DNA from: Verrucomicrobiota bacterium
Lineage (GTDB): Bacteria; Verrucomicrobiota; Verrucomicrobiia; Verrucomicrobiales; Akkermansiaceae
NCBI GenBank assembly: GCA_041179105.1
Contig: JBEGUC010000003.1
Span: forward strand, 1,732 to 65,731
DNA: 64,000 bases
Reading direction: 5' to 3'
The notes beneath the pieces are model-generated. The model was not told where the DNA came from. It did not search any database and worked only from the letters and a program-made list of their open reading frames with translations. This document shows, in pieces, positions 5,799-22,639 of the stretch; position 1 is the stretch's first letter; every line of letters begins with the position of its first letter. A program made the position numbers and the translations under genes.

Positions 5799-5890
5799 GG
5801 AAAATTCCCTCACAAGTCTGACCCGCTGCGAAGCGTCGCCACAATCCCGCCTTGAAATGCGGGAAACGCCGTGCATCCTGCCGCCCGCCC

Positions 5891-7186
5891 ATGGCAGGAC
5901 CTACTTTCCAAGCACTTCCCGGATTCCGCGACTTCACTCCCCGTGAATGCGCGGTTCGCAATTATTTGTTCGAGACTTGGCGCGGCGTGGCCCGCCGTTG
6001 CGGCTATGTCGAATACGAAACGCCCATCTTGGAGGACACCGGACTCTATTTGAAAAAGTCAGGCGGTGAGCTTTCGTCACAGCTTTTCCGTTTCGAGGAC
6101 CAAGGCGGCCGCGATGTCACGCTCCGCCCGGAAGTGACCGCCTCACTCGCCCGGATCGTCGCCCAGCATCAACGAGATTTCCCGAAACCGCTCAAGTGGT
6201 TCGAGATCGGTCAATGTTTCCGCTACGAAAAACCGCAGAAGGGCAGGGGACGCGAGTTCCATCAATTCAACGTCGATATCCTCGGCGAAGGCGGCCCGGC
6301 TGCTGACGCGGAACTCATTTCTCTCGCCATCGAGACGATGCTCTCCTTCGGCTTCCTCGCTGGCGACTTCATTGTCCGCGTCTCGGATCGCAAAGCCTGG
6401 ATCGATTTTGCTGCCGCCAATGAAATCACCGAAGACCGCATCCCGGATTTCCTCGGTATTATCGACAAGATCGAGCGCGAGAAACCCGAAGTGCTCGAAC
6501 AAAAACTCGCCGCTTTTTCCCTCACACCCGATGTCGTCCGCGCCTTCATCGCGGATCCTGCCAACGCTTCCGCCGCTTACCTTGCGATCCGTCAAGATTT
6601 GAGCGCCCGTGGATTCGCGAATTTCGTCGAGCTGGACCTCTCCATCGTCCGCGGCCTCGCTTATTATACCGGCGTGGTTTTCGAGGTCTTCGATGCGAAA
6701 AAATCCATGCGCGCCGTCGCCGGTGGCGGTCGCTACGACACCTTGATTTCCACCATATCCGACGGAGCCGTGGACATGCCCGCGACCGGCTTTGCCATGG
6801 GCGACTACGTCATCCGCAACCTCATCGAGGAAACGACGCACACCGCCATGCAGATGGAAGTCTGGCTCCAGCGCAACGCCGCCGCCTGCGACATCTACGT
6901 CGTCGTCGCGGATGAAACGAAGCGTGCCGAATCACTTAAACTCGTCACCAGCCTCCGGCGTGCGGGCATCTCCGCAGACCTTCCTATGGGCTGCCCCAAG
7001 GTCGCCAAACAATTCCAAAGCGCCGAGAAATCTGGCGCTCGCTTCGCCCTCGTCGTCGGAACCGAATATCCCGCGCTCAAGCTCAAGATTCTCGCCAGCC
7101 GCACCGAAGAATCCGGCCACGTCGAAACCGCCATCGACTGGCTCACCGACCGCCTCCTCCAGCCCGACGGGCCGTTGCTGGCATAG
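5891..7186 (+). CDS. hisS: Histidine--tRNA ligase
   Basis: GFRDF, LRPEVT, FRYEKPQKGR.REF.Q, RGLAYYTG, GGGRYD, C-terminal anticodon domain; ATG at 5891 chosen. Confidence 0.96.
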   Translation: MAGPTFQALPGFRDFTPRECAVRNYLFETWRGVARRCGYVEYETPILEDTGLYLKKSGGELSSQLFRFEDQGGRDVTLRPEVTASLARIVAQHQRDFPKPLKWFEIGQCFRYEKPQKGRGREFHQFNVDILGEGGPAADAELISLAIETMLSFGFLAGDFIVRVSDRKAWIDFAAANEITEDRIPDFLGIIDKIEREKPEVLEQKLAAFSLTPDVVRAFIADPANASAAYLAIRQDLSARGFANFVELDLSIVRGLAYYTGVVFEVFDAKKSMRAVAGGGRYDTLISTISDGAVDMPATGFAMGDYVIRNLIEETTHTAMQMEVWLQRNAAACDIYVVVADETKRAESLKLVTSLRRAGISADLPMGCPKVAKQFQSAEKSGARFALVVGTEYPALKLKILASRTEESGHVETAIDWLTDRLLQPDGPLLA

Positions 7187-7199
7187 AGAGGGAAGAGAA

Positions 7200-7228
7200 A
7201 TTTAACCGCAGATGAACGCAGATGGACG
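7200..7228 (+). repeat. Left arm of perfect 29-bp inverted repeat flanking the GxxExxY gene (10-nt period, CGCAGAT core)
   Basis: atttaaccgcagatgaacgcagatggacg is the exact reverse complement of 7646-7674; CGCAGAT at 7207, 7217 and 7227. Confidence 0.95.
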
Positions 7229-7629
7229 CAGATTTTTCATTTAAGAAAGAGACCGACGCCATTATTGGCTCTGCGTTTGATGTGCTGAATGAAATCGGTC
7301 ACGGTTTTCATGAGAAGCCTTATGAGAATTCTTTGGTGGTAGAGTTCGGGCACAAGAATATCCCGTTTCTCCAGCAGCCCCGCTATCCGCTCATTTACCG
7401 TGGAGTCCAGGTTTCAGAATATGTTCCTGATTTGATCGCCTTCGGACTTGTGATCGTGGATACCAAAGTCATCGAGCGCATCACCGACCATGAGATTGGG
7501 CAAATGCTCAATTACTTGAGAATCACAGGACTTCCCGTCGGCCTGATCCTCAATTTCAAAAACTCCAAACTCGAGTTTCGTCGTGTCATCGCGACCACCC
7601 AGAATTTCATCCGCCGCAAAGCCCCTTAA
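7222..7629 (+). CDS. GxxExxY protein (PD-(D/E)XK nuclease-like)
   Basis: 135 aa; GFHEKPY = GxxExxY; PDL....VDTK catalytic-type motif; QMLNYL, GLILNF; more AT-rich than its neighbours. Confidence 0.93.
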   Translation: MDADFSFKKETDAIIGSAFDVLNEIGHGFHEKPYENSLVVEFGHKNIPFLQQPRYPLIYRGVQVSEYVPDLIAFGLVIVDTKVIERITDHEIGQMLNYLRITGLPVGLILNFKNSKLEFRRVIATTQNFIRRKAP

Positions 7630-7645
7630 ATCTTCCTCTTATTAA

Positions 7646-7674
7646 CGTCCATCTGCGTTCATCTGCGGTTAAAT
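7646..7674 (-). repeat. Right arm of perfect 29-bp inverted repeat flanking the GxxExxY gene
   Basis: cgtccatctgcgttcatctgcggttaaat. Confidence 0.95.
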
Positions 7675-7696
7675 AAATCTTCAATTTCTCTCCATC

Positions 7697-9496
7697 ATGC
7701 GCACTCATCATTGCAACGAACTCCGCGACTCTCACATCGATCAATCCGTCACGCTCATCGGCTGGGTGAACTCCGCCCGCGATCACGGCGGCGTCATTTT
7801 CATCGACTTGCGTGACCGCGAAGGGCTGACCCAGTGCGTCTTCCATCCGGAGGAAAACCCCGAGGTTTCGGCTCTATCGCACACCCTGCGCGAGGAAGAT
7901 GTCGTGCAAGTCACAGGCCGGGTTTCCAAGCGTCTTGAAGGTTCGGGAAATGCCAAGATCAGCACCGGCGCGATCGAAATCGTCGCCACCGGACTCACCA
8001 TCGTCAACAAGGCCGACGTATTGCCGTTCCAACTCGACAAGGATCTATCCAACGAAGATCTGCGGATGAAATACCGCTATCTCGACCTGCGCCGCCCGCG
8101 TATGAACAAGAACATCCGCCAGCGCAGCGTGATCACCTCCGCCGCCCGCCGCTATCTCGATGACTCCGGTTTCTATGAAATCGAAACGCCGATTCTATCG
8201 AATCCAACACCGGAAGGCGCCCGCGATTTCCTCGTGCCATCGCGGCTCAATCCCGGCCGTTTCTACGCCCTGCCGCAAGCCCCGCAGCAATACAAACAAC
8301 TGCTGATGGTCGCCGGTATGGAAAAGTATTTCCAGATCGCCCGCTGTTTCCGCGATGAGGATCTGCGCGCCGACCGCCAACCGGAGTTCACCCAGATCGA
8401 CATCGAAGCCAGCTTCGTCAATCAAGACGACATCATCGGGCTGGTCGAAGGGCTGCTAGGCTCGATGTTCAAGGCCGGCCTCGGCATCGAAGTCCCGGCT
8501 AATTTCCCGCGCATGACCTATGCGGATGCGATGGACATCTACGGCTCGGACAAGCCGGACACCCGCTTCGGCATGGAAATCACCGACCTTGGCGACGTCT
8601 TCGCGGCCACTGAGTTTAAGATTTTCCGCAGTATTCTTGATGGCGGTGGCGTGGTTCGCGCCATCAATGCCAAAGGCTTCGCCACCATCACCACCGGCCA
8701 GATGAACCGCCTCAACGAGATTGCCGTGCAAGCCGGCCTTCCCGTGAAAAACCTCGCCTTCATCAAACTCGAAAACGGCGAATACAAGAGCCCGCTCTGG
8801 AAAATCTTCACCGAAACTGAGAAGGCGGCCGTCCTGGTTAAACTCGATCTGGCAGAAGGCGATATCGTCTTCTTCGCGGCTGGCTCGCGTGACAGCGTCA
8901 GCACCATCCTCGGTCGCGTGCGTTCGGAATGCGCCGTGATGATGGATCTCAATAACGATCCTACGAAGTTCAACTTCCTCTGGGTTGTTGATTTCCCACT
9001 GCTTGCCCACGACGAGGAAACTGGCCACTGGGCCGCCGTCCACCATCCTTTCACCCGGCCACATCCGGATGACATCGCGCTGCTGGAAGCCGGCGATTAC
9101 GCCAATGTCCGCGCCGTCGCCTATGACGTCGTGCTCAACGGTTACGAACTCGGCGGTGGCTCGATCCGGATTCACGAAAAGGACCTCCAAGCGAAAATGT
9201 TCAGCGTGCTCGGCGTCGGCCCGGAAGAGCAGCAAATCAAGTTCGGCCATCTTCTCGACGCCTTCCGCTTCGGTGCCCCACCGCATGGTGGACTGGCTCT
9301 CGGTCTCGACCGCATCGCCATGTTAGTTGCTGGCGAGGAGAGCATCCGCGAGGTCATCGCCTTCCCGAAAAACAACAAGGGTGCCGACCTCATGGCCCAG
9401 AGTCCGTGCCAAATCGAGCACAAGCTGCTGCGTGAAGTTTACGTCCAGTCCACCTACAAGGATCCAAAACTCAGCGCGGAAAAGGCGATTTTATAA
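7697..9496 (+). CDS. aspS: Aspartate--tRNA ligase (probably non-discriminating Asp/Asn type)
   Basis: MRTH.C.EL, FIDLRD, TPEGARDFLVP, FRDEDLRADRQPEFTQ, GAD insert, HHPFT, GGGSIRIH, GAPPHGG. Confidence 0.98.
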   Translation: MRTHHCNELRDSHIDQSVTLIGWVNSARDHGGVIFIDLRDREGLTQCVFHPEENPEVSALSHTLREEDVVQVTGRVSKRLEGSGNAKISTGAIEIVATGLTIVNKADVLPFQLDKDLSNEDLRMKYRYLDLRRPRMNKNIRQRSVITSAARRYLDDSGFYEIETPILSNPTPEGARDFLVPSRLNPGRFYALPQAPQQYKQLLMVAGMEKYFQIARCFRDEDLRADRQPEFTQIDIEASFVNQDDIIGLVEGLLGSMFKAGLGIEVPANFPRMTYADAMDIYGSDKPDTRFGMEITDLGDVFAATEFKIFRSILDGGGVVRAINAKGFATITTGQMNRLNEIAVQAGLPVKNLAFIKLENGEYKSPLWKIFTETEKAAVLVKLDLAEGDIVFFAAGSRDSVSTILGRVRSECAVMMDLNNDPTKFNFLWVVDFPLLAHDEETGHWAAVHHPFTRPHPDDIALLEAGDYANVRAVAYDVVLNGYELGGGSIRIHEKDLQAKMFSVLGVGPEEQQIKFGHLLDAFRFGAPPHGGLALGLDRIAMLVAGEESIREVIAFPKNNKGADLMAQSPCQIEHKLLREVYVQSTYKDPKLSAEKAIL

Positions 9497-22492: not shown

Positions 22493-22639
22493 GACCACTG
22501 ATTTCACTGATTTCACTGATTTCACTGATTTTTAAGAAGTTTGTACAAAGCTCTTACTCACCCAAAAGGTGACGGCTAATTCGGCCAGTTGATTTTCACA
22601 ACTCTCTTAAAATCTGTGAAATCAGTGAAATCTGTGGTT
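22493..22639. repeat. Gene-less inverted repeat of 9-nt CACTGATTT tandem units
   Basis: (cactgattt)x4 at 22496-22531 then ttaaga; right arm tcttaaaatctgtgaaatcagtgaaatctgtggtt (22605-22639) carries three reverse-complement units. Confidence 0.9.

Follow-up and report, generated by a model that had tools for sequence, protein, structure and literature searches.

Among described genetic elements, the intervening sequences (IVSs) of bacterial 23S ribosomal RNA (rRNA) are the closest counterpart of the element examined here, a cassette lying at positions 7200-7674 of a 64,000-nucleotide (nt) stretch of DNA from a Verrucomicrobiota bacterium (Akkermansiaceae; assembly GCA_041179105.1, contig JBEGUC010000003.1, positions 1,732 to 65,731 of the forward strand, hereafter called the window), in which a small gene of the GxxExxY family is enclosed by a perfect inverted repeat between hisS and aspS. 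The IVS of Coxiella burnetii, located in helix 45, is 428-444 nt long and its terminal stem measures 28 bp, and the open reading frame (ORF) of the S23p protein is preceded by an AGAAGA box and by three GACAGAT heptamers in tandem; the guanine plus cytosine (GC) content of this IVS is below that of the genome, RNase III cleaves it in mid-stem, and its origin and function remain unclear according to the authors (PMC4990558). Our cassette resembles the IVSs of Coxiella, Leptospira and others in size (~475-507 nt as against 428-444 nt), in terminal stem (29 bp as against 28 bp) and in carrying an ORF of ~120-135 aa, which is likewise preceded by an AG-rich box and three tandem heptamers, CGCAGAT in place of GACAGAT (compared with the text of the paper). 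It also has a GC content lower than that of its host, a sporadic distribution and signs of horizontal transfer, as IVSs do, and genes of the S23p type (PF05635) are present in similar periodic arms in this same genome. The two differ in that the cassette lies between the protein-coding genes hisS and aspS instead of in an rRNA helix, that its ORF encodes a PD-(D/E)XK nuclease (PF13366) and not the four-helix S23p protein (PF05635), and that RNase III excision is established for IVSs whereas for the cassette it is predicted by analogy. The IVS literature, moreover, contains neither gene-less dispersed copies nor the habitat of operon spacers.

Another parallel is offered by the small GIY-YIG nucleases called Ssn, which cut single-stranded DNA (ssDNA) at the cognate hairpin repeats flanking their own genes and affect transformation, and whose layout was remarked by the authors to be like that of mobile elements (PMC11893778). 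As in the Ssn/NTS/SRM systems, a small single-domain nuclease gene has cognate repeats (20-50 nt) on both sides (PMC11893778), the repeats are also dispersed in intergenic regions, and nuclease-repeat pairs co-vary. However, the domain is PD-(D/E)XK here and GIY-YIG there, the flanks of the cassette pair mutually and contain three phased units whereas each NTS is a small hairpin of its own, and site-specific cleavage of ssDNA has been shown for Ssn while cleavage by GxxExxY proteins is only predicted. The REPIN hairpins, which belong with repetitive extragenic palindromic (REP) sequences and REP-associated tyrosine transposases (RAYTs), are similar in that the gene is flanked by inverted repeat copies while many gene-less inverted doublets also occupy spacers (PMC3116915, PMC3337134), each gene having its own repeat type, with long persistence in lineages and clusters like those of bacterial interspersed mosaic elements (BIMEs; here on contig C68). 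Yet RAYT is an HUH transposase of the Y1 type and usually single-copy, whereas we deal with six paralogues of a PD-(D/E)XK protein, and phased tandem units stand here in place of the single REP hairpin. Free-standing homing endonuclease genes, too, are small nuclease genes at specific intergenic sites, showing presence/absence polymorphism, frequent pseudogenization and a gene phylogeny in conflict with that of the host, but they have neither long inverted-repeat packaging nor gene-less dispersed derivatives, and cleavage of empty alleles is here no more than a conjecture. Classical insertion sequences and miniature inverted-repeat transposable elements (MITEs) are set apart by the absence of a target-site duplication beside the inverted repeats of the cassette. 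Our search of the literature retrieved no functional study of the GxxExxY family, in agreement with the statement in the initial annotation of this DNA that these proteins are without established function, and no paper describing a hairpin-cassette class; a 2012 survey of the PD-(D/E)XK superfamily lists PDDEXK_3 as being of unknown function.

We read the element as a selfish hairpin cassette of the ORF-bearing 23S IVS type, residing in the spacer of an mRNA operon and having a GxxExxY nuclease in place of S23p. To this reading, in which the stem would act in RNA and the nuclease probably works on its own arms, we give about an even chance of being correct. The cassette is promoterless, co-oriented with its operon and devoid of target duplication; both the protein and the arms are kept by selection, and this lineage has also seen a multiplication of gene-less hairpins with the same types of unit.

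A discrete cassette at two operon junctions

The hisS-aspS locus is organized as follows.

5852-7186, plus strand: hisS, the upstream host gene, with its stop directly before the outer box (TIGR00442, 1.1e-92; PF13393).
7185-7199, plus strand: purine-rich outer box, the imperfect outer part of the inverted repeat, pairing with 7675-7689.
7200-7228, plus strand: left arm of the perfect 29-bp inverted repeat, with a TTAACC terminus and then phased units.
7207-7233, plus strand: three phased units with core CGCAGAT, spacers GAA then GGA and period 10, forming a direct-repeat family.
7222-7629, plus strand: GxxExxY / PD-(D/E)XK nuclease gene, 135 aa (PF13366, 1.3e-30; TIGR04256, 1.5e-33).
7646-7674, plus strand: right arm, the reverse complement of 7200-7228.
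7675-7691, plus strand: pyrimidine-rich outer box, imperfectly paired with 7185-7199 and forming the aspS leader.
7697-9496, plus strand: aspS, the downstream host gene (NF001750, 3.2e-244).

The cassette and its outer boxes occupy the entire spacer between the end of hisS (7186) and the start of aspS (7697). The inverted repeat 7200-7228/7646-7674 is perfect over 29 bp (the repeat finder returned 7201-7228/7646-7673, to which the pair A7200-T7674 is added), which is far beyond chance, and it extends outward imperfectly to 7185-7228/7646-7689 (44 nt, 86% complementary). Arms of the cassette class score 40-77, as compared with a best value of 38 and a median of 16 for displaced controls (273 positions). 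After the opening AACCGC, the left arm consists of 10-nt units, each with the 7-nt core CGCAGAT and a 3-nt spacer, which are present in three copies: CGCAGATGAA (7207-7216), CGCAGATGGA (7217-7226) and CGCAGAT (7227-7233), the third core being only partly matched by the right arm. The sole canonical in-frame start of the 135-aa ORF is the ATG at 7222, within the left arm, no earlier start being available because of an in-frame TGA at 7213. The details noticed in the initial annotation (the perfect 29-bp repeat, its AACCGC start, the 10-nt CGCAGAT units and the ATG inside the left arm) were all confirmed. The greater AT-richness that it ascribed to the gene is equally real (GC 0.46-0.49 in the cassette vs ~0.60 around), and neither a transposase nor an obvious target-site duplication, both reported as absent, is present.

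No transposase gene was found in the cassette, no sigma-70-like promoter in 6900-7900, and no Rfam family matched in a permissive search of 6500-8500. The minimum-free-energy fold of the transcript contains a long stem that closes the cassette (z = -7.1), with the outer boxes paired too, and AG-rich boxes also precede the arms of other copies. A duplication of the target TTAA was considered and rejected, as the bases adjoining AACC co-vary between alleles as an inverted and not as a direct repeat. Separately, we observed that the junction of a core ending in GAT with a spacer starting with G creates an ATG in each unit (7212, 7222 and the third unit of the window copy); given the period of 10, the three ATGs cover the three reading frames, so that the enclosed ORF invariably has one of them in its own frame.

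The junction was then compared among 29 genomes of the same genus that possess both genes. A full-length cassette is present in 11 of the 29, a gutted one in four and none in 14, the last comprising three spacers with other hairpins or a solo arm, four with a single TTTAGAAT-type array and seven plain spacers of 14-46 nt. The clean spacer of L027 equals the flanks of the filled L017 allele minus exactly the inverted-repeat block, without duplication; the cassette is a discrete unit made up of exactly the inverted repeat and its contents. Decay takes various forms: the full-length copy of L010, 93% identical in nucleotides to that of the window, is frameshifted by a 1-nt deletion, in the L016 remnant an internal deletion has brought the beginning of the left arm against the 3' end of the gene, part of the gene survives in L009 together with the left end, L029 preserves a remnant of the right arm, and L019 is decayed. 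The TTTAGAAT-like spacers (L008, L022, L024, L031, L036) contain a single array of three or four units with period 7-8 and no inverted partner, which may represent either the lone arm of some other hairpin family or a motif in its own right.

On the aspS tree the cassette state requires at least 10 changes. The genes at the site split into two lineages, A and B, having related but distinct arms and both occurring in all three host clades, and approximately unbiased (AU) tests on the gene tree reject the host clades (p = 2e-5 and 9e-5). Between L028 (lineage A) and L030 (lineage B) the rate of synonymous divergence (dS) is 0.39 for aspS, whereas the cassette genes differ by a nonsynonymous divergence (dN) of 0.35 with saturated dS; therefore, at least one cassette replacement has occurred. 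The ends of hisS and aspS in L028 are not closer to those of lineage A hosts, so that the cassette alone was exchanged. Long-lived under purifying selection, the cassette has nonetheless been repeatedly lost, gutted or replaced by the other lineage. The comparison of junctions proposed in the initial annotation thus yielded full, gutted and clean alleles, and its view of arm-gene-arm as a discrete unit that enters tight operon junctions is supported; fixation with vertical descent, which it named as evidence to the contrary, is not what these 11/4/14 states, the 10 or more changes and the two AU values indicate.

The second site, the carA-purA junction, is filled in 13 of 41 congeners. The carA-purA copy of our genome nests within lineage A, and this lineage has therefore moved between junctions. 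Clean alleles occur in G063 (spacer of 4 nt) and G019; G004 and G026 retain only a solo left arm, and G032 has another hairpin at this place. Within the closest clade, alleles that are filled or reduced to a solo arm (C23 of our genome and the sites of G001 and G004) take the carA stop codon from the TAA of the TTAACC end of the cassette, and their CarA ends in other residues than that of the clean G063 allele; insertion has remodelled the end of the host gene carA.

The enclosed protein belongs to a very large family, since 7,835 clusters at 50% identity match it at E <= 0.001. The ORF at 7222-7629 scores 115.6 bits with TIGR04256 (cut-off 35) and 106.6 bits with PF13366 PDDEXK_3 (cut-off 22), the sole Pfam family in the enclosed gene. 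Residues of the motif and of the catalytic site are present (G28, E31, Y34, D70, D80 and K82), and E31, D70, D/E80 and K82 are each kept in 59-64 of the 66 aligned sequences, query included. Its AlphaFold2 model, with a predicted local distance difference test (pLDDT) value of 92.8, has the restriction-endonuclease-like alpha/beta fold of PD-(D/E)XK proteins, in line with the fold proposed at the outset, and the structural neighbours retrieved with Foldseek and VIA-align are Cas4 SSO0001 (Z 8.0), the restriction-endonuclease-like protein 3ijm (7.7) and Hjc (6.6), followed by restriction-enzyme-like proteins and tRNA-splicing endonuclease, over a range of Z from 8.0 to ~5. Sequence searches gave only a chance match in the PDB (E = 0.03), only a weak match to a type II restriction endonuclease in PADLOC (E = 0.002) and none in PHROGs; the gene is thus not a listed defence or phage gene by the latter two. 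The dN/dS ratio among copies is 0.06-0.20, with saturated dS, and argues for purifying selection on the protein. Tandem two-domain GxxExxY fusions of 250-290 aa also exist, and in 10 of the 11 that were examined (P0052, P0054, P0056, P0060, P0080, P0087, P0088, P0111, P0127, P0134 and P0144) exactly one half, which may be either, retains the E-D-E-K catalytic set; the tandem fusion was modelled with a pLDDT of 86.9. This pattern points to the half-dead fusions being pseudo-dimers, and suggests that the enzyme works as a dimer for which a single active site suffices, i.e. by nicking.

Packaging of related genes in the genome and across phyla

The assembly is a metagenome-assembled genome (MAG) in 140 contigs and 63% complete. 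It contains six GxxExxY genes, all of which are flanked by periodic inverted arrays, each with a unit of its own: CGCAGAT at hisS-aspS, CGCGAAT at carA-purA, CGCCAAG and ACGGATTT at two junctions whose flanking genes look, on visual reading, like pheS / pheT and nuoK-nuoL, respectively, and for the two remaining genes the CGCAGAG type and one further type. The same packaging surrounds two of the three genes scoring above cut-off for PF05635, the four-helix "23S rRNA IVS protein". These two (C23:163-628 and C8:46867-47187, with units GTTGATGG and CTTGATTCT) lie between ordinary co-oriented genes and represent cassettes of the IVS type that are not located in rRNA; around the third, on C28, the layout is less tidy.

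Scanning of the whole genome revealed ~30 inverted pairs of periodic arrays, mostly gene-less with loops of 24-100 nt, which reuse the unit types of gene-bearing copies and are nearly confined to intergenic spacers. Gene-less hairpins of the CGCAGATG type, for instance, occur at C11, C24 and C95, and one more at C88 is partly seen. The commonest family has the CACTGATTT core, with 26 arm hits in this incomplete genome; a 75-nt loop and the outer ends are conserved in eight of nine aligned copies, the ends reading CCTAAA ... TTTAGG, and copies form BIME-like tandem clusters on contig C68. One gene-less copy lies in the window (22494-22638, or C3:24225-24369), with an arm period of 9 and the 75-nt loop; synteny in relatives breaks after the gene upstream of it and its empty site was not mapped. 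The family has only ~2 loci in G001, which is among the nearest relatives and 95% complete, is present in another close relative, G004, and was searched for without success in four more near-complete congeners; it has thus expanded only within the close group. Compound hairpins, with one unit type in or against the loops of another, were observed at C79:3679, C94:7831, C17:10847 and C97:7343; together with the C68 clusters, they suggest insertion into or beside existing hairpins.

Beyond this genome, 80 loci were sampled using 12 closer sequences and represent the near subfamily only (55-83% identity). The best-matching loci, with up to 83% identity, have records titled Luteolibacter, and the remaining titles are mostly of Verrucomicrobiota but include Planctomycetota, Flavobacteriales, Desulfobacter and relatives, Nitrospirae, Hydrogenedentota and Mariprofundus; this spread across phyla rests on record titles, some of which are implausible for MAGs. 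One of the homologues, 72% identical (L040), belongs to a cultured strain, Luteolibacter pohnpeiensis KCTC 22041. Flanking inverted repeats exceed the 99th percentile of displaced controls in 70 of the 80 loci, contrary to the possibility, raised in the initial annotation, that most homologues lack them. Nearly all arms consist of AACC and three units of period 10 with the core C-[G/A]-C-N-[G/A]-A-T; of 90 related loci, 60 show this three-unit grammar in the left arm and 51 in the right. Core position 4 is identical in units 1 and 3 in 99 of the 111 three-unit arms and agrees with the middle unit in 64 of the 111, while the left and right arms of an element agree in 39 of 45 cases for unit 1, 37 of 45 for unit 3 and 16 of 45 for the middle unit, which is therefore relaxed and often mismatched.

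The core types cluster on the protein tree, requiring 22 changes as compared with a mean of 36 and a minimum of 30 after shuffling. Arms hence track the lineage of the protein, as one of the checks suggested earlier had asked of unit sequence and protein phylogeny. Changes of core type are still frequent and each appears in several units of both arms, a concerted evolution of the arm units. The first in-frame ATG falls within the arm in 45 of 57 loci and, between co-directional neighbours, the gene is co-oriented with them in 47 cases and anti-oriented in two (crude ORF calls).

Proposed mode of action and alternative explanations

In the selfish cassette that we envisage, the arms would pair in the transcript of hisS, the GxxExxY gene and aspS, forming a stem of at least 29 bp that would loop out the cassette and bury its ATG. 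By analogy with the Coxiella IVS, this RNA stem would be a substrate of RNase III, whereby the insertion would become tolerable to the host. The RNA step is argued from the likeness to IVSs and is supported by the fold (z = -7.1), the orientation bias and the occurrence of RNase III in the genus, its genes being present in three near-complete congeners. A stem that loops out the gene and hides its start codon had been put forward in the initial annotation, and is consistent with these observations and with the position of the ATG inside the arm in 45 of 57 relatives. At the level of DNA, a dimeric PD-(D/E)XK nuclease would recognize its own arms by their phased heptamers, the DNA being folded or single-stranded, and its nicking or cutting there would drive the copying of the cassette to new sites or the maintenance of the hairpin family, in parallel with the action of RAYT on REPINs and of Ssn at its own flanking repeats. 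It is the lineage-specific arms, the concerted evolution of their units and the precedents of Ssn and RAYT that lead us to this step; judging from these, the nuclease probably acts on its own arms. Recognition of the arms had been suggested in the initial annotation too, along with a cutting of empty alleles that is likewise conjectural.

Several observations weigh against this scheme. The PF05635 cassettes share the architecture but have no nuclease, so that the arms do not strictly need the GxxExxY protein, and this weakens the DNA step. Structural matches of the modelled protein are generic (Z <= 8) and give no information on the substrate, covariation between arms and protein is expected from linkage alone, and no gene-bearing CACTGATTT copy was found in the 63%-complete assembly. 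In 73 stems, mismatches on the sense strand are A-C in 115 cases and G-U in 73 (p = 0.003); the sequences compared share ancestry, and part of the left arm is coding sequence. This spectrum does not support the RNA step, nor any selection on a stem in the sense RNA, even if it is not evidence against the stem. The long persistence at one site, with saturated dS, also fits a domesticated host function.

The alternative that survives best, although we judge it rather unlikely, retains the RNA step alone: the arms would only form an RNase III stem, with GxxExxY or S23p proteins as cargo of unrelated role, and the element would be moved by recombination or by some other factor acting in trans. Its build equals that of the RNase III-processed IVS of Coxiella, two unrelated cargo families share one architecture, and the co-transcriptional orientation (47 to 2), the burial of the start codon by the stem at 45 of 57 loci, the long-range fold (z = -7.1) and the RNase III of the genus are all as this explanation would have them. 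An RNase III stem, however, requires neither the conservation of arm sequence, over and above pairing, that is seen across phyla within the subfamily, nor its difference between paralogues. The stems show no sense-strand excess of G-U pairs, and the phased three-unit grammar and the gene-less bursts are left unexplained.

A domesticated nuclease-repeat system of the host, similar to Ssn/NTS or REP, is in our opinion more doubtful again. The enzyme would cut ssDNA at dispersed repeats, e.g. to limit recombination of incoming DNA, the hairpins would double as elements of mRNA stability or insulators, and the flanks of the gene would be just two more repeats. Ssn provides the precedent of a small single-domain nuclease with repeat-flanked genes, and the strong purifying selection, the long occupation of two sites across the genus and the location of the repeats almost exclusively in intergenic spacers are in keeping with such a role. 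On the other hand, the six paralogues with six unit types in one small genome, the frequent pseudogenes and gutted copies, the patchy presence even in the closest relatives and the lineage replacement are more like selfish turnover than like a single host function.

It is quite improbable that a transposase encoded at another locus mobilizes the cassette in the manner of a non-autonomous MITE, with the small gene as a passenger. The genome does contain a candidate, a Y1/IS200-like gene of the RAYT type (Y1_Tnp, 85.6 bits) at C67:8778-9119, gene-less copies do multiply, and insertion without duplication is typical of single-strand transposition by HUH enzymes. This RAYT-like gene, however, is flanked by GC-rich REP-like palindromes of its own that are unlike the periodic arms and constitute a separate repeat system, on account of which we rejected it as the mobilizer of the cassettes, and arm types follow the enclosed gene across phyla. 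Finally, that an ordinary resident gene has descended vertically within a chance or locally generated inverted repeat, without forming a unit, is scarcely credible: the 93% nucleotide identity of the L010 copy, with an aspS dS of 0.64 between the genomes, is compatible with vertical descent in the closest clade, whereas this explanation is refuted by the polymorphic site with its precise clean allele, the at least 10 state changes, the incongruent phylogeny (AU tests) and the packaging repeated around 70 of 80 homologues and all paralogues.

Implications for the GxxExxY family

The allele series at hisS-aspS and carA-purA, which within one genus includes full, frameshifted, gutted, solo-arm and clean states, provides a natural record of a discrete cassette with turnover at both sites. 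The packaging of the genes ties the very large GxxExxY family to two puzzles, the origin of 23S IVSs and the spread of intergenic hairpins outside the REP/RAYT system. The nuclease-arm pairs with CGCAGAT and CGCGAAT, which differ at two core positions and coexist in one genome, make specificity directly testable. If the nucleases do read their arms, they would be small nucleases, specific for sequence or structure, that might find practical application, as has been argued for Ssn.

A broader proposal, which we advance tentatively and with clearly less than even confidence, is that GxxExxY proteins are the working enzymes of a large unnamed class of hairpin cassettes inserting without target duplication. 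Each enzyme would read its own heptamers, the outer and inner ones constrained and the middle one relaxed, nick folded DNA, copy the cassette and seed gene-less hairpins, and the 23S IVSs would be those members that landed in rRNA. If this proves true, heptamer-protein pairs would offer, ready-made in nature, small sequence-specific nucleases of varied specificity, and the origin of the 23S rRNA IVSs would be settled after more than 30 years.

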